Below are positions 3,945 to 41,936 of a stretch of 64,000 bases of DNA, one piece after another. The stretch is from an uncultured Gammaproteobacteria bacterium (GTDB lineage: Bacteria > Cyanobacteriota > Vampirovibrionia > LMEP-6097), in NCBI GenBank assembly GCA_964517685.1, contig CAZFCF010000003.1, positions 47,706 to 111,705 of the forward strand, given 5' to 3'. Position 1 is the first letter of the stretch; the number at the start of each line of letters is the position of its first letter. The notes under the pieces were generated by a model. That model saw nothing but the letters and a program-made list of their open reading frames with translations, searched no databases and was not told the origin of the DNA. The position numbers were made by a program, and so were the translations under genes.

Positions 3945-4937
3945 ATGCATATAGTTATTTTTGGTATTGGCGCAATTGGAGGGTTCTACGGTATCACTCT
4001 TGCAAGGTATCTGAAAAACAATCCTAGAGAAGATTTCAAAATTAGTTTTATTGCTAGAGGGCAAACTTTTGAAAACTTAAAACATTTTGGAGCTAAATTA
4101 ATTTGTAAAAGAGACACTCTTGGTGAAATGCAAGAGTCTATTGTTGTAGAAAATAATTTTACTTTGGTAAAAAAATATCAAGAGTTAGAAATTAATCCAG
4201 ATGAATATACTTTGGTTTTGCTTTGTGTCAAATCCAAAGACACTATTGATGCTTGCAAAGATATAAAAACTAAACTTACTGATAATACTGCTGTGATCTC
4301 AGTGCAAAATGGAATTGAGAATGAAGAAAGAATTGCAGAAATTTTGGGAATCAAGCATGCAATTGGTTCTCTGACTACGATTGCTGCAGAAACTTTAGAG
4401 CCAGGGATCTATCTTCAGAAAGGTGGTTACGGATTTACTATTGGTGAATTGACAGAGAACATTGGTTATAAGTGGGCTGATAAAAAAAGAATAGATTATA
4501 TTTATAACTTTTTAAAAGAAGCCGGTTTGAGTATTTCACAAACTGAAAATATTAAAGAAGAGCTGTGGATTAAATTAGTTTGGAATGCAGCTTTTAATCC
4601 TATTAGTGTCCTGTATGAAAATACTGTTGGGCAACTACTTGCAGATCCTAAGAAAAAAGCACTTATTGAAGGAGTGATGTTTGAAGTTACTGAAGTGGCT
4701 GCCGCAGAAGGATATAAGTTGCCTGATGGTATAGAGCAGAAGCAAATTGGCAGGACTAGTAGTCCGATTTGGTATGACTTCAGAACTTCGATGTTACAAG
4801 ATTTTCAAAAAGGTAGAGAAATTGAGCTTGATGATTTATTGGGAGTCATTGTTCGCAAAGCCAAAGAGCATGATATCGATGTGCCAAATGCTGAAAAAGT
4901 TTTTAGTGAGCTTTCGGCCGTCATTGCGAGGAGTTAA
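3945..4937 (+). CDS. panE: 2-dehydropantoate 2-reductase (ketopantoate reductase, PanE/ApbA)
   Basis: N-terminal Rossmann motif MHIVIFGIGAIGGFYG. About 330 aa, with KPR-like central and C-terminal regions. The last residues (SAVIARS-stop) are encoded by the MITE at 4917-5019. Confidence 0.65.
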   Translation: MHIVIFGIGAIGGFYGITLARYLKNNPREDFKISFIARGQTFENLKHFGAKLICKRDTLGEMQESIVVENNFTLVKKYQELEINPDEYTLVLLCVKSKDTIDACKDIKTKLTDNTAVISVQNGIENEERIAEILGIKHAIGSLTTIAAETLEPGIYLQKGGYGFTIGELTENIGYKWADKKRIDYIYNFLKEAGLSISQTENIKEELWIKLVWNAAFNPISVLYENTVGQLLADPKKKALIEGVMFEVTEVAAAEGYKLPDGIEQKQIGRTSSPIWYDFRTSMLQDFQKGREIELDDLLGVIVRKAKEHDIDVPNAEKVFSELSAVIARS

Positions 4938-5019
4938 AAGCGACGAAGCAATCCAGTTTGCGCAGGGGGATTGCTTCGCTGGCCGTCACTGCGAGCGAAG
5001 CGCGGCAGTCGCAATGACG
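4917..5019. mobile_element. RPE-like palindromic MITE (family A), full-length copy
   Basis: gccgtcattgcgaggag...cgacgaagcaatcc...ggggattgcttcgct...cgcaatgacg. Terminal inverted repeat gtcattgcga/tcgcaatgac plus an internal inverted repeat gaagcaatcc/ggattgcttc. Family recurs at least 10 times in the window. Confidence 0.8.
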
Positions 5020-7940: not shown

Positions 7941-10900
7941 TTGAGGTGCTCAATTAAAGTCCCTAAAAAATATCTTTATTTCTTCTCTACCTTAGTTTTT
8001 TTGACTATAAGTTTTTTTCTTGTATTGAAATTAGTTAACTTCTCAGAATTAATAGCCAACTATGCGGTTAATGATTTTAATAAAAAGATCTATGGCGCTA
8101 TCAGTTTCAAAGATGCAAGACTCGGTTTAAATCCAAAGAATCTTGATTTATATTTTGAAATATTTATTCTAAAAGATCAAAATTCAGTCGAGATTTTCAA
8201 AGCTAAGAATCTAAGAGTCAAATGGTCTTTAAAGAATTTATTTGATCCGAATCAAAGAATTAATGAACTCTCTGCTGATAATTTATTTATAGCAGCTAGC
8301 AAAAATAAAAATGGTAAATGGAATTTTGAAAACCTATTCAAAAAACCTGCTGTTACGAAGCTCAAGTATTCATTTAGAGAAATTAATGTCCCTCAGTTTA
8401 CTTTGCATATAAGTGATGATATCGGTGGTTCGCAATTAAAATATGAAAATGTCAAAGTGTTTTTTAAAACCATTAAGCATAAAAAGCTCTATAGCATTGA
8501 TGTTGAGACTACCAGTAATGGTGACAATTTGATATCAGTTAAGGGTAATCTAAACCTTGCAGGTGATCAAAACTTTTTATTGAATAGAAATAATCTCAAT
8601 GTACATTTAGTAGATTTCCAAGCGATTAATTTACAGTTTTTTAGTTCTATATTTGATTTTGGTGCTTATAACAAAAACTTTACTGCGGCAGCTAAATATT
8701 TAGAAGGCTCTCGCTTAACTCTTGATGCACAGGTAAATTCCAATCGTAAGTCAAAAAACAATTTTAAATTCAATTTGCAAGTAAATGAATTGAGAAGCTT
8801 TGATCACGTAACTGCCGATTTTATTGGCAATTTGACTGCGGATTTATTAACAGTCTCTAAAATGGATCTAAATGCTGGAGAGGCTTTAATTAGCTGTGTA
8901 GGTACTGTATCTAAATGGCAGGAAAAAGATCCTATACTAAATTTAAATTTTAGAATCCATAACTTAAGTCTGCAAAAATTAAAAGTAGAAATTAATAAAT
9001 TGAAAATTCCTTTAGCAGGTTTTATTTATGAAACTTTAGCTGTAGTTTTGAAAACAGATTTAGTAAATGGTAATTTTAAAATTGCTTCTCATTTAACTAA
9101 TCCAGATTATTCATTAAATTTAGATATGGCAGGTTCTAATAATCAGCTTAAAACTAATTTTCAATATCATAATGCTGTTCTAGTAATTAAAAGTCTTGAT
9201 CTTCCTTTTGAGGCATCTAAATTATCTCTCAGGGGTAGTCATGATCTTAAGAACAATAATTTTGATTTTGAAATCGTTGCCAAAGCTGCTCCATTACAGA
9301 TTTTGACTGATATAGTATCTTCTTTGCCAATTGCTGCAAAATTACAAGTATTCTTGATTAAATCAAAATTTGAATCTGGAACTACAGATTTTAATATGCA
9401 TATTAATTCAGTGATAGATCCTCAAACTAAACTTAAAAGGGTGCAAATTAACTCTTCAACTAAAATTCGTAATGTTAATTTAAATTACGAAGATTATCCA
9501 ATTGAATTTAAGAATTTAAATTCAGATATGGAAGTTAAAGACTATGATCTCAATATTAAAACTTTAACTGGTTATCTAGGTGATGACTATGTTGAATTGA
9601 GAGGTTCATTGGATTATAGAAATCTTTCAGAAGTCAATCTAGAACTGGCTTCACCAGAATTTAATGCAAGTAACTTTAATGATTTAAAGCTTTTAGAGAA
9701 TTTGAAAAAATCTTATGGTATTAATATGGTCTCTGGTGTTCTAAAAGATTTTTATTTGGCTTTTAAGAGAAAGGATAAAAATATCGACATAGTTTCACAT
9801 GCCAATATTGATATGGGGGAAGTGGTTTTCAATGATTCTTCCAAAGTATCTAAAATAAGAGGTTTATTTGCTTTAAAAGATAAAGTTTTGAAATTTACTA
9901 AATTTACTTTTAGTTTTGGTGATGATTCAATTGTTCTCCTGGATGGCCTTGTTGATGAGACTTTGAAAGCACCAAATTTAATTTTACAAGCTAAAAAATT
10001 GTCTTTAGCTAAAATATCTAAAATTTTTGGTTTTGATAAAAAACTAAAAATCAATTTTACTGATGGCACATTGAATTCTAATTTAACTCTCAAGGATAAA
10101 GATTATTTCGGTACTATTGATTTTAATTCCGTAGGTTTTAACTACCTAGATTCCAAATATGGTGTTTACCCGGTTTCTAATATGAAAGGTAAGATCAATT
10201 TCAATAAATATTTATATGCAGAAGATCTTAGTGGTAAATATGGTGCTTCTGTATTTAAAAATCTAAATATTCATATTGATAAACCAAAGTCAGCAGATAG
10301 AATCTTCAGTCTTAGCTTCAATGGAGATCTATATGCTAATGAATTGAGTAACTTTATGCCACAAGGCATTAAGAGCTTACTTACAGTCACTGGCTATCTT
10401 CCAGCTCGTATTTTAATTTCTGGTAATAGACAGAAACAGAAATATAATATTGAGGCTGATTTGGATAATGTGGATAGCTTTAGCTTCTCAAATTGGCTTG
10501 TCTACCAAAAAAATGTACCGGTGCAGCTTAAAGCTAAATTTACTGTTACGCCTCAGCAAATTATTTCTGAAGATTGCAAGATTATTTTCTCAAATGGTCC
10601 AAGCAAAATAAATAAAATGACCAGAATCAAATCTACTTTCCAGATTGAAGATTGGTCAAATTCAAGAATGACTTATTATACAGTTTTCAGTATTTCTAAC
10701 AAGATTGGTAATGCTGATCTAGCTTATGTTGCACCGCAAATCATTAGTTTGAAGCCAATGAATCTCAGTGTTGGCAGAGGTTACTTCGATTGCGATACTA
10801 GTGGTGACATAGTCTCTAGGCAAACAATTTGTGATATTCGTATTAATAGTGCTGTTGCTAAGAAGTATGGAATTGGTGACTTGAAGGCTAATAAAATCAC

Positions 10901-11747
10901 TGTTGGATTGCTTTCAATCAATAATAAGCCTTTGGATGCTGATATTAGTTCTAGTGATGGTGACTGGAATGGTATTCCTTATAAGAACTTAGATTTAGAT
11001 TTAAAAGCAAATGGTGATTTTGTTTATATCGATAATTTAACGGCAGTTGTTAAAGATGGCACACTTGCTGCTAAAACTAGTTTCAATGTTAAAACCTTGG
11101 AATCTACATTCCGAATGAAAGGTGATAAATTACCTGCTCATGAACTTGTACAAGGTATATGGCTATTGGGTGATGAGGTGCCAGCTGGAGTCGTTAGTGG
11201 TACTTTTGAAGGTAAGACAGTCGGTATTTTACCTGATCCAATGTTCTATAACCTCGAAGGTAGCGCGAATCTGTCAGTTAAAAATGGCCAGTTGAGCCAA
11301 TTGAAATCAATGCAAAGAATTTTGACGGCAGTAAATACCATGACTAATTTTGATGTCAATAATGTTTTCCAAGTTTTGATTACTTATAAAGGAGGACTTT
11401 TTAACGATTTGATCAGCGCTATGAAATATGACAAAGGAGTTATAAGTTCAGAAAAAGTTCTTCTTAAGGCAGATGCTATTGAATTAGATCTCAGTGGTTT
11501 TTTGGATTTTAATAAAGATCATCTATCCGTAAAAGGCAAAGGCATGATCCCAAGAAGAGCTAAGAGTATTTTACAAACTGTAGGTGTGGGTAAGGCTAAC
11601 CTAGGTAATATACTTTCCAAGGCTAATTTAGACTTTTTAATCCCAACTTCTAGTAATAGATTTTTTGAATTCCAAATGACTGGTCCGATTAGTGATATGG
11701 AAACGACGGCTGAGTCGGTGCGCTCTACCTTCAAGTGGACCCAGTAA
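7941..11747 (+). CDS. AsmA/TamB-like giant outer-membrane-biogenesis protein (1268 aa)
   Basis: N-terminal membrane anchor, then a very long beta-rich, Asn/Lys-rich body. Size and architecture fit TamB/AsmA-family proteins of diderms. No catalytic motifs seen. Confidence 0.4.
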   Translation: MRCSIKVPKKYLYFFSTLVFLTISFFLVLKLVNFSELIANYAVNDFNKKIYGAISFKDARLGLNPKNLDLYFEIFILKDQNSVEIFKAKNLRVKWSLKNLFDPNQRINELSADNLFIAASKNKNGKWNFENLFKKPAVTKLKYSFREINVPQFTLHISDDIGGSQLKYENVKVFFKTIKHKKLYSIDVETTSNGDNLISVKGNLNLAGDQNFLLNRNNLNVHLVDFQAINLQFFSSIFDFGAYNKNFTAAAKYLEGSRLTLDAQVNSNRKSKNNFKFNLQVNELRSFDHVTADFIGNLTADLLTVSKMDLNAGEALISCVGTVSKWQEKDPILNLNFRIHNLSLQKLKVEINKLKIPLAGFIYETLAVVLKTDLVNGNFKIASHLTNPDYSLNLDMAGSNNQLKTNFQYHNAVLVIKSLDLPFEASKLSLRGSHDLKNNNFDFEIVAKAAPLQILTDIVSSLPIAAKLQVFLIKSKFESGTTDFNMHINSVIDPQTKLKRVQINSSTKIRNVNLNYEDYPIEFKNLNSDMEVKDYDLNIKTLTGYLGDDYVELRGSLDYRNLSEVNLELASPEFNASNFNDLKLLENLKKSYGINMVSGVLKDFYLAFKRKDKNIDIVSHANIDMGEVVFNDSSKVSKIRGLFALKDKVLKFTKFTFSFGDDSIVLLDGLVDETLKAPNLILQAKKLSLAKISKIFGFDKKLKINFTDGTLNSNLTLKDKDYFGTIDFNSVGFNYLDSKYGVYPVSNMKGKINFNKYLYAEDLSGKYGASVFKNLNIHIDKPKSADRIFSLSFNGDLYANELSNFMPQGIKSLLTVTGYLPARILISGNRQKQKYNIEADLDNVDSFSFSNWLVYQKNVPVQLKAKFTVTPQQIISEDCKIIFSNGPSKINKMTRIKSTFQIEDWSNSRMTYYTVFSISNKIGNADLAYVAPQIISLKPMNLSVGRGYFDCDTSGDIVSRQTICDIRINSAVAKKYGIGDLKANKITVGLLSINNKPLDADISSSDGDWNGIPYKNLDLDLKANGDFVYIDNLTAVVKDGTLAAKTSFNVKTLESTFRMKGDKLPAHELVQGIWLLGDEVPAGVVSGTFEGKTVGILPDPMFYNLEGSANLSVKNGQLSQLKSMQRILTAVNTMTNFDVNNVFQVLITYKGGLFNDLISAMKYDKGVISSEKVLLKADAIELDLSGFLDFNKDHLSVKGKGMIPRRAKSILQTVGVGKANLGNILSKANLDFLIPTSSNRFFEFQMTGPISDMETTAESVRSTFKWTQ

Positions 11748-15281: not shown

Positions 15282-15386
15282 CCGTCATTGCGAGCCACGA
15301 AGTGGCGTGGCAATCCAGTCAGCGCACGGGGATTGCTTCGTCAGGCTTTGCCTTCCTCGCAATGACACGCTACGCTCGCAATGACG
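15282..15386. mobile_element. RPE-like MITE (family A) copy, intergenic with duplicated right end
   Basis: ccgtcattgcgagccacgaagtggcgtggcaatcc...ggggattgcttcgtcagg...cctcgcaatgacacgctacgctcgcaatgacgg. Confidence 0.75.
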
Positions 15387-15412: not shown

Positions 15413-16915
15413 CTATTTAGCTTGCACTATCAAATTAATTTTCAAAATCTGCGCTGCAACTTCATTGGCGATTTTAAAAGCAGATATTTTTACTTCAGTT
15501 GGATCTATAACTCCAGCTTCTTCTAAATCAAGTAATTCACCATTATCAAGATCAATACCCTTAGTATTTTGCGGGCTAAGGCTAAGTTTAGTAATCAATT
15601 CACTGAATTCAAATCCTGCATTAGTAACTATTTGTTTGAATAGTGCTGCAAGTGATTCAATAACCACATCAAAGCCGGCAGAGATTTCAGTGTCGTTTTT
15701 GAATTCTTGTTTTGATTCTTGTAAATTTTTAATTAGATTAAGCTCGGCAATACCTTCACCCATTAAGTAACCTGACTTCAGGGTTGCGATCATGGCTTGA
15801 ATGGCATCTTTAGTAATGCGCTTACGTTCCTCAAGGATAGTTTCAGTTTCAGCATTAATAATGATAGTGGCTTGATATTGCTTACTGCCAATTAAGCTAA
15901 AACCAGCGAGCTCGGGATAGTAAGTAATTTTTTCTAAGCTACCAGAATAATCTTTGAGATTTTGCTCTGAGCTTAATAAGTTTGCTCTAGTAGTTAATTG
16001 TGAGCCGCTTGCTTGAATTAAATTATCGATATCAGATTTTTTTAGATGAGTTAAAACAAAAATTCCTGACTTCACAAAAAATTCTTCAATAGTTGGAAAC
16101 ATCGAGGCACTAGTGAAAACTGCTTTAATACCCGATTTAGAAATTTTCTTAGCAGAGTCTAGCAGCGTTTGAATATTGTTTTCAAATCTTTTGACACCTT
16201 CATCAGTGCTTATAGCCTCGCTGGACATTGGTTCTGGCTCAAAAGGCCCTTCGATAATTAGGCAGCTTAGCTCATTGAAACTTTGTGAGTAATTAAAATG
16301 AGTTTTCTTTTTGATAAATAAGCCATCTAGAACTCGTGATTCTGAGAGGCTTGTAGCAACAACTGCTTCTGCAAGATCGTAACTATCATTAATGAGAATA
16401 TTTGTTTTATTCTTGTCGATAATTTTTTTAGCAGCATCAATGATTAATTCCGTGATGATTTGATTTTCTCTTGCGGCAATAGAAACTACTTGTTTGAGTT
16501 TTTCATCATTTATATCTTTGATGGGTTTAGAACTTTTTCTAAATTCATTAATTAACTTTTCTGAAGCTATTTGAATACCTTTGACCAAGCGTGAAGTTTT
16601 TGCACCATTATTAATTTTGTTTTGGGCGCTACTTAGAAGGGCGTCAATTAGAATCGCTGTACTAGTAGTACCATCACCAACTTGAGCTTCTTGAGATTTA
16701 AGTGCTTCATTAACCAGCCTAGAAATCGGATGGAGAATTTTTAGATTGCTAAGAATTTCGACGCCATCATTAGTGCAAGTAGTGTGACCAAATTCATCAA
16801 CTAACATTACATCAAGTCCTTTTGGACCTACAGTGCCTTTTACAGTGGCCACAAGGGATGCTACCGCATTAATATTGGAATTGAGAATGTCTGAGTATTT
16901 TTGGTTGTCTAGCAT
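15413..16915 (-). CDS. group II chaperonin (thermosome/CCT-like Cpn60, TCP-1 family)
   Basis: VGPKGLDVMLVDEFGHTTCTNDGVEILSNLKILHPISRLVNEALKSQEAQVGDGTTSTAILIDALL aligns residue by residue with the archaeal thermosome ([28 protein letters not shown]...VGDGTTTAVVLAGELL). 500 aa, no GGM tail. Confidence 0.75.
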   Translation of the reverse strand: MLDNQKYSDILNSNINAVASLVATVKGTVGPKGLDVMLVDEFGHTTCTNDGVEILSNLKILHPISRLVNEALKSQEAQVGDGTTSTAILIDALLSSAQNKINNGAKTSRLVKGIQIASEKLINEFRKSSKPIKDINDEKLKQVVSIAARENQIITELIIDAAKKIIDKNKTNILINDSYDLAEAVVATSLSESRVLDGLFIKKKTHFNYSQSFNELSCLIIEGPFEPEPMSSEAISTDEGVKRFENNIQTLLDSAKKISKSGIKAVFTSASMFPTIEEFFVKSGIFVLTHLKKSDIDNLIQASGSQLTTRANLLSSEQNLKDYSGSLEKITYYPELAGFSLIGSKQYQATIIINAETETILEERKRITKDAIQAMIATLKSGYLMGEGIAELNLIKNLQESKQEFKNDTEISAGFDVVIESLAALFKQIVTNAGFEFSELITKLSLSPQNTKGIDLDNGELLDLEEAGVIDPTEVKISAFKIANEVAAQILKINLIVQAK

Positions 16916-17853: not shown

Positions 17854-17913
17854 CGTTCGTCATCCTGAGCCCTGAAAGGGCGTGAGGATCTAGTCCTTAA
17901 TGGTTCTTTATAA

Positions 17914-18036
17914 CTGGAGAAAATTTTTCATACACTCTTTCACTCCCTATTGCTTGACGCCCCTCCCAGCTCCGCCGCTCGGAGGCGACGCAAACAGGGC
18001 GACCCTTAGTTCAAGAGTGTATTAAAAATTTTCTAG
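17914..18036. repeat. MITE-like element (family C): 24-bp inverted repeats flanking a GC-rich core
   Basis: ctggagaaaatttttcatacactctt (17914-17939) is the reverse complement of aagagtgtattaaaaattttctag (18013-18036). Between them lies a 72-bp GC-rich core with a ctccg..cggag hairpin. Directly preceded by a short family-A-like hairpin, tcgtcatcctgagccctgaaagggcgtgaggatc (17864-17896). Confidence 0.6.
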
Positions 18037-18118: not shown

Positions 18119-19126
18119 ATGGTACTTGGTGGTCAAACAAGTGGATTTAGTGCAGCTCCTTACGTTAGCCCGAATGCTAACTTTCCGACTAGTAATGGTC
18201 CAAAGAGCGCTGACACAAAGCCCGCAATTAATAGAGTAAGCCCTGCTGATGTGAGCAAGGTTGCGACGCAGAAGCCTGGAGCTAAGGCAGATCAGTTTGT
18301 AGATATAGCAGATAAGGCTACACAAAATCATGAAGATGCTAAAAGAGTTCATGATGATCTGAAGAAAGACAAAGCCCTTCAAGCAGATACTTTTAAGAGT
18401 AGAATTGAAGTTGGTAAATCTAGAAGTGAAGTTTTATTACAACAAGTTGCAGTTAAGCAATTAAACGATAAAGAATTTAAAAAACAACAAGCAGAGAATT
18501 TTGCTAAAAATCTTAGTGAAAGCCAGCTGAAAGGTAAAGCTAATCAAGGAGCAGTTCAGCAAGAACCACTCTCTGCTGATAAAGATCAAAATCTTGCAAG
18601 TAATGTAGTTCAATCGCAAATTGAAACTTTAGATCCTGATGCTAAAGCAAGAAAAAAACTTGATGATAAATTACAGAAAATTTACAATAGTGGTAGTGAA
18701 AAAGGAAAACATTTCGTTTCATTTGTCTCAAGAGAAATGACCAAAGGTCCTCTGCCAAAGAGTATTCTTGAGTTAGTTGATGGTTTTCTTGAAACTCTTA
18801 AGCCGCAAGGCAGTCAAACTCCATCACAGATGATTGCATCTGGTAATGAACCAATTTCAACTCTTAAAAGTATGGTTTCTGCTACTGATCTTGAAGAATT
18901 AGGGCAGATCCAAAATAGTTTAGCTAATTCGGTTGTTGCTTCTGCAGGAGAAAAAACAGATCTTCTTGCAATTAGAAATTTACTTAAAGTTGAGGTTAGG
19001 CAAGCACCTCCTCCAGCATTAGTCTCAAATTTTAATGATAGAGATAATTTAAAAACTGCTGCTGATTTTGTTATATCAATTAATCGTGGTGTTGCTAATA
19101 CGCCTTGGGATGCCATAGCTGCATAA
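18119..19126 (+). CDS. hypothetical protein (335 aa, Lys/Gln/Ala-rich)
   Basis: ORF only; no recognisable motif. Confidence 0.4.
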   Translation: MVLGGQTSGFSAAPYVSPNANFPTSNGPKSADTKPAINRVSPADVSKVATQKPGAKADQFVDIADKATQNHEDAKRVHDDLKKDKALQADTFKSRIEVGKSRSEVLLQQVAVKQLNDKEFKKQQAENFAKNLSESQLKGKANQGAVQQEPLSADKDQNLASNVVQSQIETLDPDAKARKKLDDKLQKIYNSGSEKGKHFVSFVSREMTKGPLPKSILELVDGFLETLKPQGSQTPSQMIASGNEPISTLKSMVSATDLEELGQIQNSLANSVVASAGEKTDLLAIRNLLKVEVRQAPPPALVSNFNDRDNLKTAADFVISINRGVANTPWDAIAA

Positions 19127-19864: not shown

Positions 19865-19899
19865 TCAGGGGGATTGCTTCGCTACGCTCGCAATGACGG
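19865..19899. mobile_element. RPE-like MITE half-element forming the 3' end of the ADH gene
   Basis: cagggggattgcttcgctacgctcgcaatgacggc. Read on the minus strand it encodes the last residues VIASVAKQSP and the stop of the 19865-20902 CDS. Confidence 0.7.
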
Positions 19900-20902
19900 C
19901 TTTTAAAATTTTCCCTTCAATCATTTCTTGCAAAGCAATTTCCAAATCTTCTAATTTAAATTCTGCTGTAATTAAATCACTTATATCAATTGTGCTATTT
20001 GCAAGTAATTCAAGAGCTTGCTGAATATATTGTGGACGATGATGAAAAGTACCAATCATTCTGATCTCTTGATAATGAATTTGATAAGTGTCAAATACAA
20101 CTTTTGAATCTTTTTTACAACCACCAAAGAAATTTATTAAACCACCAGGTCTCACCATCTTCATGCAATCTAACCAAGCTTCAGGTTTGCCCACGGCTTC
20201 AAAAACCACATCAGCACCAAAGCCATTGATGGCTTTTATTTTATTTGTGAATTCTGGATCTTTGTAATCAAAAATAAAATCAGCACCATTGGCTTTAGCA
20301 AGTTTTGTTTTCAATGCAGAATTGCCAATCGCAATTATAGTGATATTCTTGCGTAACTTTCTACAAAGCTTAATAAAAGTTAAACCGATAGCACCAATGC
20401 CATAGACGCAAACCATGTCATTGTCTTTGATTCCTGATTTCTCAAAGCCATGTAAAGTTACTGCTAAAGTCTGCACAACGGCTGCAGTTTTAAAATCAAG
20501 TGATTCAGGAATTTTGTATAAGTTATTTTCTACAATGCTTTCAGGAATTTTTATTAGTTCGGCAAATGAGCCATTGAGAAATTCTAGATTTTCACAAAGT
20601 TCAAATTCTTCTTTGCGGCAAAAAAAACATTTATAACAAGGAGCAGTATTTGCGGCGGTAACTTTATCTCCGATAGTGAATTTTGGATTTTTAGTTTCTT
20701 TAACTATTCCTGAAAATTCATAACCGAAACTTGAGGGAATGCTTTTGATTAATTTAGGATGACCCTGAAGGTAAGTTTTAGTATCAGTACCTCCAGTTAG
20801 TGCAGCTTTTATTTCCACCAAAACCTCACCCTTACTTATGTTAGGGTCTTGAATATTTTCAATCCTTAAATCTTTTGGTCCGTAGAATAATATAGCTTTC
20901 AT
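19865..20902 (-). CDS. zinc-dependent alcohol dehydrogenase / medium-chain dehydrogenase-reductase (threonine/sorbitol dehydrogenase-like)
   Basis: MKAILFYGPKDLRIENIQDPNISKGEVLVEIKAALTGGTD...; structural-zinc Cys cluster CYKCFFCRKEEFELC; GxGxxG-like VYGIGAIGL. The C-terminal 10 aa are MITE-derived. Confidence 0.7.
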   Translation of the reverse strand: MKAILFYGPKDLRIENIQDPNISKGEVLVEIKAALTGGTDTKTYLQGHPKLIKSIPSSFGYEFSGIVKETKNPKFTIGDKVTAANTAPCYKCFFCRKEEFELCENLEFLNGSFAELIKIPESIVENNLYKIPESLDFKTAAVVQTLAVTLHGFEKSGIKDNDMVCVYGIGAIGLTFIKLCRKLRKNITIIAIGNSALKTKLAKANGADFIFDYKDPEFTNKIKAINGFGADVVFEAVGKPEAWLDCMKMVRPGGLINFFGGCKKDSKVVFDTYQIHYQEIRMIGTFHHRPQYIQQALELLANSTIDISDLITAEFKLEDLEIALQEMIEGKILKAVIASVAKQSP

Positions 20903-23133: not shown

Positions 23134-23143
23134 TTTAATAGCG

Positions 23144-23231
23144 GCGTCATTGCGAGGAACGTAGTGACGAAGCAATCCCCCTGCGCAAATCAGATTGCCA
23201 CGTCGGGCTTTGCCCTCCTCGCAATGACGAG
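23144..23231. mobile_element. RPE-like MITE (family A) copy, intergenic
   Basis: gcgtcattgcgaggaacgtagtgacgaagcaatccccctgcgcaaatcagattgccacgtcgggctttgccctcctcgcaatgacg. Confidence 0.75.
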
Positions 23232-23279
23232 CGGTACGCAACCCATCTCAGGTGGTATGATTTTACTTGAAATTTCAGA

Positions 23280-30396: not shown

Positions 30397-31815
30397 TCAA
30401 AGCGATACCATCTTAATTTGTAGCCTTTTCAAAGCCTCATCTGGATTAAGTTCTCGGCGTATAACTTTTAGGTAAGCATCTTTAATTTCACGCTTATACA
30501 TTTGGCTGAAAGGCAATTGTGGAAAGTATTTGGCATTAGGACTTTTAGCCAGATCAATAAATATTTCTATGTATTGATTTGGATGTTTCTGTATAAAGCT
30601 TTCGCTGTGTGTGTTTAATGGTGTAAATTTTTGTTGTGCTAAAGCTAGATACTCTAGATTTTCTTGTTTGTGTAACCATTTAATGAACTCTGCTGCTTGT
30701 CGAGCGTGTTTCGCGCCTTTGGGAATTGCAAGCGCATCTACCGTTACATAAGTAGCTTTGGGTACTCTGCCTGGAAACGCTCTCACAGAGATATTTAGCT
30801 GCGGTGAGTAAATTTTGGCAAGATTCTTTTCCCAGACCCCATTATTCTCAAGTGCAATTTTGCCAGAGTAAAAAGGATTGTCCGGACTTTGGTAAGCATG
30901 AAAGCCTTCAGTATATGAAGCGAGTTTTTGTGGGTCGATTTTGCTTGCGAAGTTTTCTACTGCCCAGTTCCAGGCTTCGAGGTTTTCGGGGGAGTAGGCG
31001 GTGATTTGCCACTCGTCATTGCGAGGAACGGAGTGACGAAGCAATCCATTTCGCGCAGGGGGATTGCCGCGCCCACTATGTGGGCTCGCAATGACGTTTG
31101 ATTTCACTCCCCACTCCCCACCAAACACAACCGGCAAGAAGCTTCCAGCCCAAGGAGGCCAGCTTGGTAAGTAAGCAATTTCTCTGCCATCACCATGGGC
31201 ATTTATGTGATCGAAGATTTTTACTATATCTTCTAAGCTTGAAGGTTCTGCTAAATGATATTTATCGAGAATATTTTTATTGATGTGAAGGGCTTCGCAA
31301 GTGGGCATCAAAGGCATCGCAAATTGTGAGCCTTGTAAATTCAACATCCTTATATATACCGGAATAAATCTATCCAAATATTCCTGATCAAAAAAATTAT
31401 CAAGTGGTTCTAGAGCGTTGCGTAAAGCAAAGTCACTGACCATATCTCCATCGAGGTGAACTAGATCTGGAGGGACTTTACCTACTATCGAAAGCAAAAT
31501 CTTTTTCTTGGGCATAGAAATGCTAACCATTTTTACTTTGAAATCGTGATCTTCTGAGTTGAATTTTTTTACTAATTCTTCTAAAGGTTTCTTTTCAACG
31601 CCGCTCCAATACTGCCAGAAGGTAATTGTTGTTTTAATGGCGCCGGGGGATTGTTTCGCTTCCACCTTCGCTAATGCTTCGGTGGACAAGCCGCTCGCAA
31701 TGACGGTGTTTGCAATGAAAGACTTCTTATAAAACTCAAAAACAAATACGCCCAGAATCACTAAGAAAAAAATCCATAAAACTATAAAAACTTTTTTTTG
31801 TGGGCTGAGGTTCAT
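30397..31815 (-). CDS. extracellular solute-binding protein (ABC transporter SBP family 1-like) carrying two in-frame MITE insertions
   Basis: N-terminal membrane anchor/signal, then an SBP_bac_1-like body. The two peptide stretches NTVIASGLSTEALAKVEAKQSPGA and SNVIASPHSGRGNPPARNGLLRHSVPRNDEW are direct translations of family-A MITEs at 31644-31706 and 31014-31096. The frame stays open. Confidence 0.55.
   Translation of the reverse strand: MNLSPQKKVFIVLWIFFLVILGVFVFEFYKKSFIANTVIASGLSTEALAKVEAKQSPGAIKTTITFWQYWSGVEKKPLEELVKKFNSEDHDFKVKMVSISMPKKKILLSIVGKVPPDLVHLDGDMVSDFALRNALEPLDNFFDQEYLDRFIPVYIRMLNLQGSQFAMPLMPTCEALHINKNILDKYHLAEPSSLEDIVKIFDHINAHGDGREIAYLPSWPPWAGSFLPVVFGGEWGVKSNVIASPHSGRGNPPARNGLLRHSVPRNDEWQITAYSPENLEAWNWAVENFASKIDPQKLASYTEGFHAYQSPDNPFYSGKIALENNGVWEKNLAKIYSPQLNISVRAFPGRVPKATYVTVDALAIPKGAKHARQAAEFIKWLHKQENLEYLALAQQKFTPLNTHSESFIQKHPNQYIEIFIDLAKSPNAKYFPQLPFSQMYKREIKDAYLKVIRRELNPDEALKRLQIKMVSL
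31014..31096. mobile_element. RPE-like MITE (family A), full copy inserted in-frame inside a CDS
   Basis: cgtcattgcgaggaacggagtgacgaagcaatccatttcgcgcagggggattgccgcgcccactatgtgggctcgcaatgacg. Confidence 0.8.
31644..31706. mobile_element. RPE-like MITE (family A), half element inserted in-frame inside the same CDS
   Basis: cgggggattgtttcgcttccaccttcgctaatgcttcggtggacaagccgctcgcaatgacgg. Confidence 0.75.
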
Positions 31816-33204: not shown

Positions 33205-33316
33205 GCCGTTATTGCGAGGAGCGAAGCAAGCCTGTCCAGAGCGTAGCGTGGGATGACGATCCAGTCTTCAAATAACTGGATCCTGACGCCTTCTGCGAAG
33301 GCTCAGGATGACGCGG
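33205..33316. mobile_element. composite RPE-like MITE (family A left half fused to a gtcatcctgagc-type palindrome)
   Basis: gccgttattgcgaggagcgaagcaagcc...gggatgacgatccagtc...ggatcctgacgccttctgcgaaggctcaggatgacgcgg. Confidence 0.7.
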
Positions 33317-33912: not shown

Positions 33913-34207
33913 CGTAATATAGATTATATTTTGAAAATTAATCTTCTTTAATTCCATGGGTGGAACTTTTTCTAAAACTTTTCAATGGTTGATACAAAAG
34001 GAATTTCACACAATATGATATACGTCTTACTCATTCATACAAAAATCTTAATTTTAAAAACTTAGCTAAAACAGTTGACCGCCTACCTAAAATTTGAAAG
34101 TATTAATGCTGTATTCTAATACGCTGGGTCTTAGTCCCTTGACCAATAGTGTTAGGAAATTTTTTATGGAAAAAAATAGGGTGAAAAAAACAAACAAAGG
34201 AGAAACA

Positions 34208-37200
34208 ATGAGTCTAAGGAAACTACTTTCTTTACTCTTACTTACGGCGTTTACTATGACGTCGATCGCTCCTGCCCAGGCGGCAGTTACGCTTAATTCA
34301 GGCGTAGTGCTTCCAACCATAGCTCAAGACGACGGTACACGTGCCGACGGTGCAAACAGAGATGTTGTGCCTTTAGTTTTGAGAATTGGTTTCGTTGGCG
34401 GAGATCTTACATTTGCACCGGACGGTACTGCGTTCCAAGCGCTTGACTCTTTCACTGTTCAAAACAATGGAAGTTTATCAACAACTGGATTTACAGTTCC
34501 AGCTCCGAGAGTTGCAGTTTTCGTACCACCTACTGGTACTGAATTCGTTAAATTAGTAGCTAATAGCTATAGAGATTTAACTTCAACTATCACTATTGCA
34601 AATGGTACGTCAGGTTCAGCAACGATCAATGGAACAACTCTTTTGAACGTTACTGCTGATTCTGCTACTACAGCTAGTTTCCCTGGAACAGGCGCTGGTG
34701 CAGTTGTTGCTGCAGTAGTTCTTACTGAGGCTGCTGGCGATGCAACGTTTGGTATTGGTTCTAGCACTGAGTTCCCAGCTGGTAGCTTAGTTGTTCAGTT
34801 CTTTACTAAAACAGATGCACCTAACCAAATTACTACTGGTGCTGGTGGACTTATCGTTATTAACGGTATCGGTCTTGCTGCAGATCCTGGTACTAGCTTA
34901 GGTTCTACAGGTGATTTAAACATCACTTATAAAGCTCCTAATACAAGTGCTGTGGCTCTTGCTGCTTTCGGTAGCTCAGTTTTAGCTGATGATACAGCTA
35001 TTAAAGTTGCTACTAAAGCAGATAACATTGGTAAATTAGAGTTCTTACAAGTTGGTACTACTACTGGTACTGAAGTAAGCACTACTTCTGAGCCAGACAG
35101 TCAACCAAACACAATACTTGCTGGTTTAATTTCAGGTACTACAGTTACTGTTGGTCCTGGATTAATCACTTCAACTGGATCTAGCTTAGCTACTGCAAAT
35201 CTTGATACGGATACACTTCTTATCAGAGCAGCTGAAAGAGCTGAATCTACAACAAGTGCAAGAGCTTATTACGAAACTCCGTTCAATACTTCAGCTTTAG
35301 TTCTAAGCCAAGTATTTAATGGTAGAGAAGCTACAACAATTCGTGATTTGACACTTGATGGTAATACTACTAACTTCCCTAACGCTGCTAACGCTTTAAT
35401 CAAAGTAACTTTTGCATTAGAGACTCCAGCAGGTGCTGCTTCTACAGCTACTCTTGCAGTTAACGCTGTAACAGTATCTATGGTAAGTCCTAGAGCATTT
35501 AATGGTTTCAGAAACACTGGAGCTGCTACAGGTGGTCAAACTCAAGCTCTTGAGGGTGCATTGCCTGGCGTAAGAGGTTTCTCAGGAGGTTTAATTAACA
35601 CTCTTGATAACGCTCCTGCGACTTCTGGTGTGACTAAGCGTACATTATATGGAGTTCTTGCTCTTTACAATGGTACAGCTTCTGTAACACAATACCAAGC
35701 AAAAGACACATTCACTGCTGACTTCAGAGCTCAAGATACTCAAAGAGGTCTTACAGATGCAGTTGCTAACACTAATACTGTAGTTGCTGGTAACGATACA
35801 CCTAGTAGTACTGGTACTGCTGCTCCAAGTGCAGACAGAATCAGTATGTTCCCTGGATCTATGATCATCAATGCTGCTGCCGCTAACGGTGTTGCTGCGT
35901 GGGATCTTGTTAACACAGCAAATGGCTCTGGATCAACTCCATTCTCATTTGCATTAGCAAGTTCTAATGACACTTATGCAAACACTAATACTATTTGGAA
36001 TCCATCAGAAGTTTCTGTAAGGATGATAAATGGTACTGGAGGAGCTTCTATTGGTAATACCGCGTATTTCTTAATTCACGGTACTAATGGAGCTGACGTA
36101 GGTGTTACTGTTGATAACTTCAGAGTTGCTTCAACTAACGTGAACGCTTCAACTGAGTTCTACGATAATGGAGTTACTTTGAAAGATGCAAACAATACTG
36201 TTGATGCACGTAATAACGTGTTAATGGCAGCTAAACTCAAAGCAAATGTTCTTGAGATTATGCCTGTATCTAATAAGTTTGATGGCTTAAGAGATGTACT
36301 TGCTCTCAGACCTGAAGCTACTATTACTCTTGATGCTACATCTAAGACTACTGGTGTGAACCTTGTAGCTACTGCTACTGGTAACAACCTTCCAACAGCT
36401 GGAGTGAAGCTAACTATAGCTAAAATCCTTCCTACTGGTGGTTTCACAGCTGGTCTAGATCTAACGTCATCGGCTCTTCCTGTTCATGGAACAATTGGTA
36501 CTCCAGCATTAATGAGCGAAAGTTCAACTGATGCAGGAGCTAGCAGATCTGCTATCCAATTGAGTAGCGTAACAGGTGCTACTACTTCTACTGATAATCT
36601 TTCAGATATCGTAGGAACTGGTAAGTCACTTGATACTACATTACCTCCATTATTCTGTGGTGGTACTGCTGGTACAGCTACTAGAGGTCCTAATGGTGTT
36701 GTATTCCAACCTAAGGCTCGTGCAATTCTGTTAACTGAAAACGGTACTACTAATTTCCAAGCAATTGAAGATTTAGGTGCTAACACAGTAATCAGAGTTA
36801 CTCTTCCTACAGGATGGGATCTAAACAAATATACAGCTACTAACGGTAACTTCCTTGCAACTGGAGTTTCTGGTGGTTTAACTGCGACTGTTATTAGAAC
36901 GCAAGACATCACTAGTACGGTCTCTAGAGCATTCATTGATATTACTGTTGATAGTAGTGCAACTACTGTAAGCACTAAGAGATTACTTGGTCTGTTCTTC
37001 AAGCCTAATGCGCTTGTAGTTCCAGAAGGAGTAACTAGCTTTACTGCTGATGTAGCGATTTACAATACAGCTGGTACCGCGGCAACTACTGATGATACTC
37101 TTGTGGGTACTATCGGTACAGTTAGCTTAGGTTCTGCATGTTCTACATTGTTAACAGTTTCATTCTGCGATAGCTCAATTTCATCTTTCGTAGCTTCTGG

Positions 37201-38899
37201 TTCTACAACTCAGACTACAGAAAATGGAAGAGTTGCTACAAGCGGATCTCAATTAACTGAATTTGGTGGATCACCATCTTCAATTCAGAGACTTGTTAAC
37301 TCATCTGCAAGTAACGAAGTAATCCTTCCAGACCTATGTGTGGAAGAGGGTGTGGCTGATGCATTACCAGTTGGTTCTATAACTGACGGTGTGCCAAGCA
37401 TATTCGGTGAATCTGCTTCTTCTACTGTAGGTGATGTTGAATTACACATTTCAACTAGCTTTGCTGGAAGTACTGCTACAGGTGAAGTTGGTCTAGATAC
37501 AGCTGCAACAGCAGTTCTATTCTCAGACACATCTATCATTGCTGACGGTGCATCAAGTGTAGTTACTACTGGTGATGATAATGAAGTAATCGTTCCTTTA
37601 CAGGAAGGTACTGCTTCAGGAAGAAAGAGACCATTCTTGGAAAAAACTCAAATCAGAATTACTGGTTTAAGACTTGACCAAGCTGCGGCTTCTCAACCAG
37701 TATCAGCACAAGACATATTAGTTTGGGCTGAAGTTGCGACAGGTACTGGTTCAGTAGCTGTTGGTAGCAATGCTGTAATTAGTAATGAAGAAACAAATAC
37801 TACAACTCATGAGTTCTTTGCTGGTAACGTATTTAGCTCTGGTAACGAAGATGAGAAATATTCAAACTCATTCTCTGACAAAGTGATAGATACTACTACA
37901 GGAACTGTAGTTGCTACTAGCTTCGGTGATAACAGTGCTACTGTTGCAACTAACACATTACAAGTTGCTCAGTCACTAGGTAATCACGGTACATTGAGTG
38001 GTGCTGTTGAGTCATTACTTGACAATTCAGGATACACATTACTTGATGAAGATACTACTTTCAGCGTTCAACTAAGTGATATCACTGGTTCTACAGACAA
38101 GAAAGCTACTATATCTGTTAATCCAGGATCATTAGAGCCAGGAACACTTGTTACTTTAACGTCAAGTGGTTCAGGTAATAGCGATTCAGTAACAGTTCCA
38201 GTACTTGATGATGGTAGTTTCATCGGTTCGATCAGAGCTAACACAAGTCAAACGATTGTGGTAACTCAAGGTCCTACTTCAACTCAAACTGGTGCTCTTC
38301 AATTAAGAGAATTAGATGTAGTTGAACAAAACGTTGAGCCTGTAATCACAGGAGCTGTAGCTGAGAATATTGGAATCGGTATCCTTACTAGAAGAGGAAC
38401 TGCGCCAGTAGTATTCACGGTAACTGCTAAAGGTAAATTGAATGGAGTTGACTTTACGCCAACTGCTAGCCAATTGACTTTAGGTGGTTCAAGCGTAATT
38501 GCTGTAACAGGTACTGATGATAAATTCATCGGTATTGCTGACTTCAGCAAATCAACGGCCTTGACTGTTAAAGCAACAGCTAATGGTGAGGAAAGTACAG
38601 CTACACTTACTGAGTTAGCTGTGTCTAATCCAACACTTAGTGGTGGTCCAGTTCTTAAGAAAGTTAAAGTCAACAAAAAAGGAAGAATTGCTCTTTCTGG
38701 TTTGAGACTACGTAACGGCGGAACATTCGGATTCGTATTAAGTGATGGTACTTACGTGCCAGTTGACCTAAAAGCTCAAACTGCTAACCAGAAGAAAACA
38801 GGTAAGAGAACTTCTGCTGTAGAAGCTACTATTCCAGCTACTGCAGTATTAGGTGTCTTCCATGTTCCTGGACGTGGTACTAGTACAATCGAACTATAA
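34208..38899 (+). CDS. giant secreted Thr/Ser/Ala/Gly-rich surface protein (1563 aa); candidate S-layer or surface-array protein
   Basis: Strong RBS aaggag 8 nt before the ATG at 34208. Signal peptide MSLRKLLSLLLLTAFTMTSIAPAQA. Only 6 Cys in about 1560 aa. Biased, highly-expressed-gene-like codon usage. Ends at a strong bidirectional terminator shared with flagellin. Confidence 0.6.
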   Translation: MSLRKLLSLLLLTAFTMTSIAPAQAAVTLNSGVVLPTIAQDDGTRADGANRDVVPLVLRIGFVGGDLTFAPDGTAFQALDSFTVQNNGSLSTTGFTVPAPRVAVFVPPTGTEFVKLVANSYRDLTSTITIANGTSGSATINGTTLLNVTADSATTASFPGTGAGAVVAAVVLTEAAGDATFGIGSSTEFPAGSLVVQFFTKTDAPNQITTGAGGLIVINGIGLAADPGTSLGSTGDLNITYKAPNTSAVALAAFGSSVLADDTAIKVATKADNIGKLEFLQVGTTTGTEVSTTSEPDSQPNTILAGLISGTTVTVGPGLITSTGSSLATANLDTDTLLIRAAERAESTTSARAYYETPFNTSALVLSQVFNGREATTIRDLTLDGNTTNFPNAANALIKVTFALETPAGAASTATLAVNAVTVSMVSPRAFNGFRNTGAATGGQTQALEGALPGVRGFSGGLINTLDNAPATSGVTKRTLYGVLALYNGTASVTQYQAKDTFTADFRAQDTQRGLTDAVANTNTVVAGNDTPSSTGTAAPSADRISMFPGSMIINAAAANGVAAWDLVNTANGSGSTPFSFALASSNDTYANTNTIWNPSEVSVRMINGTGGASIGNTAYFLIHGTNGADVGVTVDNFRVASTNVNASTEFYDNGVTLKDANNTVDARNNVLMAAKLKANVLEIMPVSNKFDGLRDVLALRPEATITLDATSKTTGVNLVATATGNNLPTAGVKLTIAKILPTGGFTAGLDLTSSALPVHGTIGTPALMSESSTDAGASRSAIQLSSVTGATTSTDNLSDIVGTGKSLDTTLPPLFCGGTAGTATRGPNGVVFQPKARAILLTENGTTNFQAIEDLGANTVIRVTLPTGWDLNKYTATNGNFLATGVSGGLTATVIRTQDITSTVSRAFIDITVDSSATTVSTKRLLGLFFKPNALVVPEGVTSFTADVAIYNTAGTAATTDDTLVGTIGTVSLGSACSTLLTVSFCDSSISSFVASGSTTQTTENGRVATSGSQLTEFGGSPSSIQRLVNSSASNEVILPDLCVEEGVADALPVGSITDGVPSIFGESASSTVGDVELHISTSFAGSTATGEVGLDTAATAVLFSDTSIIADGASSVVTTGDDNEVIVPLQEGTASGRKRPFLEKTQIRITGLRLDQAAASQPVSAQDILVWAEVATGTGSVAVGSNAVISNEETNTTTHEFFAGNVFSSGNEDEKYSNSFSDKVIDTTTGTVVATSFGDNSATVATNTLQVAQSLGNHGTLSGAVESLLDNSGYTLLDEDTTFSVQLSDITGSTDKKATISVNPGSLEPGTLVTLTSSGSGNSDSVTVPVLDDGSFIGSIRANTSQTIVVTQGPTSTQTGALQLRELDVVEQNVEPVITGAVAENIGIGILTRRGTAPVVFTVTAKGKLNGVDFTPTASQLTLGGSSVIAVTGTDDKFIGIADFSKSTALTVKATANGEESTATLTELAVSNPTLSGGPVLKKVKVNKKGRIALSGLRLRNGGTFGFVLSDGTYVPVDLKAQTANQKKTGKRTSAVEATIPATAVLGVFHVPGRGTSTIEL

Positions 38900-38927: not shown

Positions 38928-38958
38928 TAAAAGGGAGCTTTCGGGCTCCCTTTTTTTT
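38928..38958. terminator. bidirectional rho-independent terminator
   Basis: aaaagggagctttcgggctcccttttttttg: an A-tract, a 7-bp GC stem, then a T-tract. It serves both the + strand surface-protein gene and the - strand flagellin gene. Confidence 0.8.
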
Positions 38959-38990: not shown

Positions 38991-39938
38991 CTAACCTTTA
39001 ATAAGCTGTAGTGCTATTTGTGGAGTTGCATTCGCTTGAGAGAGCATCGCTGCGGCAGTTTGCTGCAGGATTTGGTTCTTGACTAAGATACTACTTTCTT
39101 GAGCAACGTCAACATCTTGGATACGCGATCTAGATGCTTCGGCGTTTTCTTTAGCAATGTCCATGTAGTCAGTTTTTGACTCCAGTGCATTTTGAGTAGC
39201 TCCTAGGTAAGATCTCATTCTAGAGATATTGTCGATAAGAGTATCAATATCACCAACCGAAGCGGCAACGTTAGTTGTGTGAGTAGCATAGTTAAGTGAA
39301 TTAACATTTGCACCACTAATTTGCAATCTATCTAAGGCAAAACCCGTAGTAGTGCCTTCAATGATGTGACCGTAATCAGTTGTACCGCCATCTGCCACTT
39401 CACTGATATCGATGTCGATACCATTGTTAGCTGCATACTCAGAACGTAGACTCAAAACAGTGGTCTGACTTGCATCAGCACCGGTTTGTAGAGTTAAGTC
39501 TGCAGATGAGGAATTGTTACTGCTAAGCAAGTTGATACCATTGAATTTTGTTGATCCAGAAATATCATTGATAACTTTAACTCGCTCGTTAATCTCTCTT
39601 TGTAGAGCGTCTTTCTCGTTAGTGCCGTTAGTTCCGTTGACACCTTGTACAACAAGTTCTCTAATTCTCTGTAAATTTTCTTGTATAACTTGCAAACCAC
39701 CTTCTGATGTTTGAATGAGTGAAATACCATCAGCGGCATTTTGTTTAGCTTTGTCAAGACCGCGAATAGTTGTTGTAAGCTTGTTTGCGATACTTAAGCC
39801 GGCTGCATCATCTGCTGCTCTGTTGATTCTGTAACCTGTAGATAAATGTTCGATATTTCTCTCAAGTCCCATAGTATTCATTCTTAATGCCCTTTGGGCG
39901 AAGATACTTTGTGTGTTTGTGTTTACTACTAATGCCAT
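38991..39938 (-). CDS. fliC: flagellin (copy 1)
   Basis: N-terminus MALVVNTNTQSIFAQRALRMNTMGLERNIEHLSTGYRINRAADDAAGLSIANKL and C-terminus QNQILQQTAAAMLSQANATPQIALQLI are canonical flagellin D0/D1 segments. Confidence 0.9.
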   Translation of the reverse strand: MALVVNTNTQSIFAQRALRMNTMGLERNIEHLSTGYRINRAADDAAGLSIANKLTTTIRGLDKAKQNAADGISLIQTSEGGLQVIQENLQRIRELVVQGVNGTNGTNEKDALQREINERVKVINDISGSTKFNGINLLSSNNSSSADLTLQTGADASQTTVLSLRSEYAANNGIDIDISEVADGGTTDYGHIIEGTTTGFALDRLQISGANVNSLNYATHTTNVAASVGDIDTLIDNISRMRSYLGATQNALESKTDYMDIAKENAEASRSRIQDVDVAQESSILVKNQILQQTAAAMLSQANATPQIALQLIKG

Positions 39939-41856: not shown

Positions 41857-41936
41857 AAGTGGGGTGGGGAGGGAATCGTCAGTTTCTACCCTTTTTATCA
41901 ACTATGCTAGGCATAGTTAAAATCTATAAGTCGAAT

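Follow-up and report, generated by a model that had tools for sequence, protein, structure and literature searches.

What kind of element is a short palindromic repeat that recurs along a stretch of bacterial DNA and lies across the very ends of its genes, and how did it come to be there? The question is raised by 64,000 nucleotides of contig CAZFCF010000003.1 (assembly GCA_964517685.1, positions 47,706 to 111,705; 'the window' below means this whole stretch), whose proteins have their named homologues in Candidatus Caenarcaniphilales, Candidatus Melainabacteria and Cyanobacteria at 41–49% identity. A preliminary description saw here a dispersed family of MITEs (miniature inverted-repeat transposable elements), similar to the Rickettsia palindromic elements (RPEs), with one copy at 4917–5019 that ends the ketopantoate reductase gene panE. 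Our analysis suggests another assignment. The repeats are probably CGTC-tagged repetitive extragenic palindromes (REPs), behaving as non-autonomous mobile DNA for which an HUH/Y1 transposase of the RAYT (REP-associated tyrosine transposase) kind would act in trans.

A hairpin monomer repeated at ten loci

The repeating unit is a monomer of 28–58 nt, not an element of 72–105 nt. It opens with a head, CGTC or TGTC, that stays unpaired; next come an outer stem of 5 bp (ATTGC...GCAAT), a mismatch zone in which 5′ GA lies opposite 3′ GAA (or GTG/GCG), an inner hairpin with a stem of 2–7 bp and a three-base loop that is mostly GNA, and a CC(A) tail. The 'full' elements of 72–105 nt are two such monomers in inverted orientation with their heads outward, as in REPINs (REP doublets forming hairpins), and are joined in this lineage by a spacer of about 13 nt resembling AGTTTGCGCAGGG; the 'half' elements are singlets. 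What had been called a terminal inverted repeat (gtcattgcgag/ctcgcaatgac) is the head and outer stem of each monomer, and the internal repeat GAAGCAATCC is the 3′ half of the same monomer hairpin. A sister subfamily has the outer stem ATCCT/AGGAT (17858–17891 and 33278–33313), and hybrid ATTGC/ATCCT dimers occur in the composite at 33207–33313 and at the panE junction of a relative (L245; such handles denote loci fetched from other genomes and viral contigs).

The abundance of these units in the window is far above chance. Allowing at most one mismatch, GTCATTGCGAG has 15 matches against 0.77 expected, and GAAGCAATCC has 18 against 5.1. A generic grammar that leaves the stem sequence free ([CT]GTC, then AT NNN, 6–45 nt, the complementary NNN, AT and C[CT]) finds 13 matches against 0.34 in shuffles, every one of them headed CGTC or TGTC. 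When 61 distinct monomers are used to build a covariance model, it recovers 15 monomers in the window at E ≤ 0.3, all within the ten loci listed earlier and none outside them. Counting a unit with a long insert at 31648–31705, the total is about 16 REP units at ten loci, arranged as five dimers, one composite and four singlets, with a G+C content of 0.53–0.61 against about 0.36 for the window. Rfam at its gathering threshold reports one tRNA in the window and nothing else. The claim of a dispersed palindromic family with at least ten copies in 64 kb is upheld, and all ten loci carry the repeat; the unit at 17858–17891 and the right part of 33205–33316, however, belong to the sister subfamily. 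Nor are all copies intact: the left half of the 46184 copy and the unit at 33207 are degenerate, and the copies at 4917 and 15282 hold nested or duplicated partial units. The units are as follows.

4919–4954, plus strand: REP monomer (CGTC-ATTGC...GCAAT-CC) in the panE end; covariance model 44.9 bits, grammar
4968–5019, minus strand: partner monomer of the 4917–5019 dimer, with a partial unit nested in its hairpin (4984–5011) and ATG 5014 in its head; grammar, covariance model
15283–15316, plus strand: REP monomer, left half of a dimer between cpn60-like and leuC-like genes; 53.9 bits
15330–15386, minus strand: right monomer 15330–15367 (TGTC head) and a duplicated partial head 15368–15386; grammar, covariance model
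17858–17891, plus strand: singlet of the sister subfamily (CGTC-ATCCT...AGGAT-CT), also kept in relative L003; grammar, covariance model
19865–19898, minus strand: REP singlet 19871–19898 and spacer remnant, forming the C-terminus of an alcohol dehydrogenase; motif, covariance model, relatives
23145–23229, plus strand: inverted dimer between a TPR gene and tyrS, with monomers 23145–23178 (plus) and 23192–23229 (minus); grammar, covariance model
31014–31096, minus strand: inverted dimer within a solute-binding protein gene; alignment, covariance model, AlphaFold2
31648–31705, minus strand: REP singlet whose inner hairpin is long, in frame in the same gene; motif only, the unit being missed by the covariance model
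33207–33313, no strand assigned: composite in the fabF/ruvA convergent gap, comprising a degenerate ATTGC-type unit 33207–33232 (plus), a scrambled fragment and an ATCCT-type unit 33278–33313 (minus)
46184–46257, plus strand: inverted dimer between the genes for MTAP and fic; left unit 46184–46220 (plus) degenerate, right unit 46230–46257 (minus) of the short type
49908–49941, plus strand: REP singlet with a TGTC head and one stem mismatch, in the divergent rsmH/purH gap; 47.1 bits

The structure of the monomer can be read from its variation. Among 454 monomers in the fetched loci the head is CGTC in 416 and TGTC in 38, and the tail is CCA in 352, followed by CCC, CTC and CCT; tails in the window are CCA or CCC. 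The outer stem opens with A-U (columns 5/32) and U-A (columns 6/31) in 61 of 61 distinct monomers; complementarity of this helix was imposed by the search pattern and hence is no evidence for pairing, and the AT start holds in the sister subfamily too. The inner helix (columns 12–16 with 20–24) covaries at five of five pairs in the 61 distinct 34-nt monomers, which come from many genomes. Two-sided changes fill 43 cells against 6.0 in shuffles, none of 500 shuffles reaches the score, and slid registers collapse. The commonest inner helix carries tandem G·A/A·G at its two middle positions (GGAGC...GCGAC), which other copies replace by Watson-Crick pairs (GGCCG/CGGCC, AGCCC/GGGCT, GCCAC/GTGGC and more), and the middle base of the GNA loop can be any of the four. 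GNA triloops are of a kind that forms very stable DNA mini-hairpins; by general nucleic-acid chemistry, sheared G·A pairs together with such a triloop would stabilize the DNA hairpin. When folded as DNA, the dimers at 4917, 15282, 23144 and 31014 pair their heads (z = −3.5 to −6.1), and the degenerate 46184 dimer (z = −0.8), the singlets and the composite fold no better than shuffles.

Repeats in gene ends and in predicted protein loops

Three genes of the window contain repeat sequence within their reading frames.

3945–4937, plus strand: panE (ketopantoate reductase), with a REP-derived C-terminus; Pfam, relatives
19865–20902, minus strand: zinc-type alcohol dehydrogenase (ADH), with a REP-derived C-terminus; Pfam, relatives
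30397–31815, minus strand: ABC-transporter solute-binding protein (SBP; SBP_bac_1/SBP_bac_8), with two in-frame REPs; Pfam, alignment, AlphaFold2

In panE, residues V326–S330 (VIARS) and the TAA stop at 4935–4937 lie inside the monomer at 4919–4954, and the match to Pfam ApbA_C stops at residue 324 out of 330. A VIAR tail is found only within the cluster sharing 90% identity, as SAVIARS-stop or SAVIARPTK-stop; none of 36 remoter homologues (46–64% identity) has one, most of them ending in ...L..KL with or without a short variable tail. The syntenic relative L246 is free of the repeat at this point and has the panE TAA, 17 nt (TTGTATACTTAATTTTG) and then a GTG start. In the window, the sequence directly after the 4917–5019 element resumes as ATGTATACTAATAATGTG, so the element sits at the old panE stop codon. 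As the preliminary description had proposed, this copy supplies the end of panE, specifically its last five codons and TAA. It had further been noted that the far end of the element contains the first ATG of the downstream secreted-protein ORF. ATG 5014 is indeed the first in-frame ATG and falls within the right-hand head, but the repeat probably does not supply the start: two relatives conserve the GTG at 5035 as the beginning of this signal-peptide protein, and the repeat-borne ATG is in frame only in the window, its equivalent in L245 being out of frame.

The ADH locus offers a series of states. Within a 90% identity cluster the protein ends in ...GKILKALIT or ...GKVLKALIS (338 aa each), in ...KAVIASPTQ (342 aa) or, in the window, in ...KAVIASVAKQSP (345 aa). 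The site is empty in L001, where AAAGC runs directly into TTTAATCACCTAA and the two convergent genes overlap at their stops. In L003 and L004, a full dimer starting with CGTCATTGCGAG and finishing with CTCGCAATGACG lies between AAAGC and ACATTTT. In the window there is one monomer, followed by the spacer remnant CCCCCTGAGCA, in which the TGA stop (19865–19867) lies just past the monomer at 19871–19898, and by the degenerate end GGAATGAAAACATTTT, a layout consistent with a dimer that has lost most of its second unit. Monomer and spacer remnant together encode the VIASVAKQSP-stop that had been ascribed to a half-copy, in place of the KALIT or KALIS ends of repeat-free relatives. The accompanying idea that half elements arise by deletion is plausible for this copy, which keeps both spacer and a degenerate far end. 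Comparison with repeat-free relatives shows that the ends of both ADH and panE differ there, which argues against an ancestral overlap of coding sequence and repeat.

Copies at 31014 and 31644 had been listed before, and their in-frame position within the SBP gene had been overlooked. Relative to 18 homologues (41–62% identity) this protein has two private insertions. The first, residues ~38–56 (TVIASGLSTEALAKVEAKQSP), corresponds to the monomer at 31648–31705 and lies just after the N-terminal membrane helix; the second, residues 241–267 (V241–D267; VIASPHSGRGNPPARNGLLRHSVPRND), corresponds to the dimer at 31014–31096, whose GTC...GAC core (31015–31095, 81 nt) is in frame. In an AlphaFold2 model of the SBP (mean predicted local distance difference test score, pLDDT, 85; predicted template-modelling score, pTM, 0.77), pLDDT falls below 50 only at residues 54–57 and 241–266, stretches with no secondary structure between well-modelled elements, and the REP-coded residues are accordingly modelled as disordered loops. 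Repeat-type peptides occur elsewhere in homologues (SSLRGAHKRDVAIQ, SVIARSAVSAT, SVIARSAKRDEAIS and GIASPLARND), and the covariance model finds REP monomers in the SBP genes of L248 (10924–10961) and L249 (2860–2898). As judged from these sequences, REPs enter SBP genes in frame recurrently and independently, as RPEs do. Since the monomer has five of its six reading frames open, and since the length of the 81-nt core is divisible by three, genes tolerate such insertions at their 3′ ends and within surface loops.

Presence and absence at orthologous sites

Beyond the ADH site, which is empty, dimer-filled or singlet-filled depending on the genome, several intergenic gaps differ in their repeat content among relatives. 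The TPR–tyrS gap holds a dimer in the window and is empty in L003, and L001 has a copy there at a different offset, at a broken contig end. Repeats occupy the ruvA/fabF gap of the window and of L249; in L248 the two genes overlap. Conversely, the TsaD–FlgM and MotA–MscS gaps contain REPs in relatives and none in the window. Most extragenic copies lie 3′ of genes or between convergent genes, with one in a divergent promoter gap. A separate observation is that the L001 contig (GCA_964420165.1, contig CAYQSL010000144.1, positions 1–46) ends exactly in CGTCATTGCGAG. A contig that stops in the repeat head implies that the repeat breaks short-read assemblies, and copy numbers in metagenome-assembled genomes are likely to be underestimated.

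Filled sites show no sign of target-site duplication (TSD). Direct repeats in the flanks of 212 dimers are as frequent as in a random-pairing control, and comparison of filled and empty ADH sites reveals no duplication. A pyrimidine stands directly 5′ of the head in 177 of the 212. The dimer at 23145–23229 is flanked on both sides by AGCGG (window 23139–23234), a pattern seen at no other dimer of the window or its relatives, and we treat it as chance.

Relation to known repeat families

Di Nocera, De Gregorio and Rocco (2013, BMC Genomics 14:522, PMC3733652) described a superfamily of CGTC-tagged REPs (CGTC-1 to CGTC-4), defined by an unpaired CGTC, at times TGTC, head, a stem that begins A-T, T-A, and a 3-nt tail, mostly CCA. 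These are mostly inverted dimers, often heterodimers, with occasional intragenic units, and they include Neisseria dRS3 (CGTC-1) and, in R. conorii, RPE-6 (CGTC-1) and RPE-4 (CGTC-4); the authors noted that bulged REP classes were probably missed (PMC3733652). The repeats of the window share the CGTC/TGTC head, the A-T/T-A stem start and the CC(A) tail, the predominance of inverted dimers with some singlets and heterodimers, the location mainly after genes, the intragenic in-frame units and the lack of an adjacent transposase. Our comparison with CGTC-1 to CGTC-4, made through the text and Table 1 of that study, assigns the repeat to no single family. CGTC-3 of Bradyrhizobium/Rhodopseudomonas encodes VIAGLDPAI, and back-translation of this peptide would imply a shared GTCATTGC start and GCAATC end. 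Literature text searches with the repeat DNA or its peptides returned unrelated primers or nothing. The anatomy fits the superfamily, bulged classes had probably been missed and the exact sequence is absent from the searched texts, so we file the repeat as a new sequence class or member of the CGTC REPs, a class that is probably undescribed.

The comparison with RPEs, made through encoded peptides, is apt for the superfamily and not for the sequence. Both are palindromic and lie in frame in coding genes, which they do not destroy but provide with loops or altered termini, and RPE-4 and RPE-6 have the same CGTC head and CC tail. The RPE-type pattern of in-frame insertion at tolerated surface positions is found in the SBP, whose homologues lack the residues in question. 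The stems differ, however: the R. conorii RPE-6/RPE-4 peptides VIPAKAGI, VIPWLDHGI and SFLRKQES...RFRGND imply ATTCC/GGAAT, where the repeats here have ATTGC/GCAAT or ATCCT/AGGAT. The in-frame RPE-1, at ~100–150 nt, is longer than the element here and unrelated to it in sequence, and the RPE hosts are Rickettsiales, as opposed to a Melainabacteria-like free-living or predatory lineage.

REPIN–RAYT systems (Bertels and Rainey) provide a parallel in organization. There, too, two inverted REP hairpins form one larger replicating hairpin, singlets appear as decay products, and copies are numerous in each genome. Such systems, however, are defined by a cognate RAYT gene flanked by repeats, and the 64-kb window has no transposase domain; moreover, they are described as vertically inherited and lineage-specific, in contrast to a monomer that is found exactly across phyla and in phage contigs.

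This breadth became apparent with the exact pattern CGTCATTGCGAG-N(4–30)-GAAGCAATCC, whose 22 fixed bases give an estimated ~2 chance matches in 1.2 × 10^12 positions. It matches at least 120 stretches in IMG/VR contigs and at least 120 in GTDB genomes. Among the matches listed are many from Bradyrhizobium, Sphingomonadales and Rhodospirillales, together with Micavibrio, Rickettsiales, Legionellales, Solimonas and Lysobacterales, Bacteroidota (Pedobacter, Hymenobacter, Tannerella, Rikenella), Armatimonadota, Anaerolineaceae, Fibrobacter and one Melainabacteria genome. Plasmids also carry the pattern, at no fewer than 40 places on one 1.76-Mb Novosphingobium replicon, with further matches in Methylobacterium, Methylosinus and a cyanobacterial replicon. 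Comparison between taxa shows a conserved monomer and variable spacers, the latter often reading CAG...CTG with self-complementary ends (117 dimers in fetched loci); heterodimers of a short and a long unit are common. Several monomers occur in each of the IMG/VR contigs L009 (at least six), L029, L073, L095, L110 and L119, where they fill short gaps between phage structural-like genes (portal-like and capsid-like, from translations judged by eye).

Models of repeat movement

The units behave as non-autonomous mobile DNA: at orthologous sites of close relatives they are either present or missing, they go in without TSD and run into one another, and on insertion they take over a gene's stop codon and C-terminal residues or contribute loops modelled as disordered. 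We propose that a RAYT-kind HUH/Y1 transposase encoded elsewhere in the genome would move the units in trans, its substrate being a single-stranded DNA hairpin that could be cut at or next to the CGTC head. Three features, hallmarks of IS200/IS605-type and RAYT transposition, suggest an HUH/Y1 enzyme that works on single-stranded DNA: TSDs are lacking, the units depend on a hairpin, and a fixed tetranucleotide adjoins it. The Neisseria REPIN ATTCCCGCGCAGGCGGGAATC, itself a dRS3/CGTC-1 unit, speaks for the same kind of mobilizer, as it is tied to a Group 2 RAYT and follows whether that RAYT is functional.

Several observations weigh against this proposal. Pfam detects no transposase domain of any kind in the 64-kb window, and none was found beside REPs in 2 Mb of fetched loci. 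A tblastn search of the same 2 Mb with E. coli RayT and IS200 TnpA queries found no match, although the search had no positive control and is a weak test. In the fetched loci, the open reading frames (ORFs) between REP pairs are phage structural or housekeeping genes and one unrelated rve-type integrase, with no REPtron-like transposase among them. CGTC REPs in many species likewise had no associated transposase in the survey of Di Nocera et al. (PMC3733652). The families published there have a continuous stem of 8–9 bp and a 4–5-nt loop (Table 1), as against five Watson-Crick pairs, G·A mismatches and a bulged A, an inner stem of 2–7 bp and a 3-nt GNA loop in the repeats here. By a nearest-neighbour energy model, consensus short monomers are no more stable than shuffles, so the structural support rests on covariation. 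Finally, allelic elements at one junction in close relatives differ strongly inside, both at ADH, as between the window and L003, and at panE. Such differences need an extra process, for example re-insertion or gene conversion.

Spread with no transposase at all, through hairpin-promoted template switching, illegitimate recombination or gene conversion during replication and repair, would accommodate some of these points: in most species CGTC REPs are not known to be linked with a transposase, nested, duplicated and hybrid units are common, and elements with unlike interiors occupy identical junctions. We nevertheless consider it unlikely. It does not account for the unpaired CGTC head or the CCA tail, both invariant and resembling recognition or cleavage sites, nor for de novo copies that appear with precise ends at unrelated sites, and it fits poorly with the related Neisseria family and the dependence of that family on a functional RAYT.

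It is about equally improbable that the repeats are host sites, such as terminators, mRNA stabilizers or protein-binding sites, that spread through selection for function. Exact conservation of sequence over many phyla, maintenance of structure by covariation and the location of most extragenic copies after genes or between convergent genes, as for REPs generally, would suit such a role. The sites themselves, however, are dispensable, in that convergent genes of relatives overlap at these very points, and the presence of copies varies among relatives at ≥90% protein identity. Copies also lie within coding sequence and in a divergent promoter gap. Terminator scans of the window identify no REP as a canonical intrinsic terminator, and no copy lies on an intrinsic-terminator-like site, whereas terminator-like hairpins with T-runs do occur elsewhere in the window. 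Selection for a host function alone is unlikely, and a secondary effect on mRNA may exist.

A classical MITE, an internally deleted insertion sequence (IS) with terminal inverted repeats that is mobilized with TSDs by the transposase of its parent, is very improbable despite the 12-nt inverted ends of the 72–105-nt full elements and the AGCGG flanks of one copy, since TSDs are absent from the 212 dimers and the ADH sites, the supposed terminal repeats are the heads of two self-contained hairpins, each half is also found alone, the monomers and not the spacers are conserved across taxa, and the window contains neither a parent IS nor a transposase. Such elements, for example Correia/NEMIS of Neisseria, do resemble the repeats here in being short, non-coding, dispersed and foldable, in having inverted ends and in being able to overlap gene ends, but they differ in their TSDs and IS-derived termini.

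Other features of the window

Three repeated 315-aa ORFs at 38991–42887 were tried as a parent IS and rejected, as they are flagellins. Two of the paralogues are 99–100% identical and the third is ~72% identical; a 203-aa ORF of unknown kind lies between them, and strong terminator-like hairpins follow flagellin genes at 38929–38954 and 41832–41857. With genes for FlgN, MotA and FliG also in the window, the organism is flagellated.

A GC-rich block of ~100 nt at 17925–18025, upstream of a 335-aa ORF (18119–19126; no Pfam match), is near-identical in L003, where the flanks diverge. Its ends, ACACTCTT and AAGAGTGT, pair, its RNA fold has an energy of −35 kcal/mol (z = −3.6), and Rfam gives no significant match. 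We regard the block as a candidate for a structured leader or a small RNA. The last 14 nt of tRNA-Tyr (58150–58235) and 28 nt downstream (58222–58263) are repeated exactly at 58313–58354, a pattern resembling the att-type duplication that an integrating element leaves behind, and the three ORFs after this repeat (58441–60584) have no Pfam match. A 500-aa Cpn60_TCP1 chaperonin (15413–16915) matches the TCP-1/cpn60 Pfam model over its full length. Two very large ORFs (34094–38899 and 7941–11747) are conserved in position in the relatives L248 and L246; one, of 1601 aa, has no Pfam match, and the other, of 1268 aa, matches DUF748 below threshold only.

Implications

The in-frame insertion of palindromic repeats, best known from Rickettsia, is extended by these copies to a Melainabacteria-like lineage. 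Orthologous sites that are empty, dimer-filled or singlet-filled in relatives sharing ≥90% protein identity constitute natural experiments, and the covarying inner helix with its tandem G·A pairs is a concrete substrate for testing. There is also a practical hazard for annotation: the repeats yield false C-terminal extensions and false start codons, and leave assemblies broken.

More broadly, an exact hairpin of 28–34 nt common to several phyla and to phage contigs sharpens the question of what mobilizes CGTC REPs. Tentatively, the G·A-zippered GNA hairpin may represent an undescribed CGTC REP class kept near-identical across phyla and phages by a conserved mobilizer or by spread between phyla. 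If so, Alpha- and Gammaproteobacteria, Bacteroidota, Chloroflexota, Armatimonadota, Fibrobacterota, Melainabacteria and many phage contigs would share either a widely conserved mobilizing enzyme of fixed specificity or frequent exchange across phylum boundaries, possibly via phages. In Melainabacteria, the repeats would then repeatedly supply proteins with new loops and C-termini, much as RPEs do in Rickettsia.

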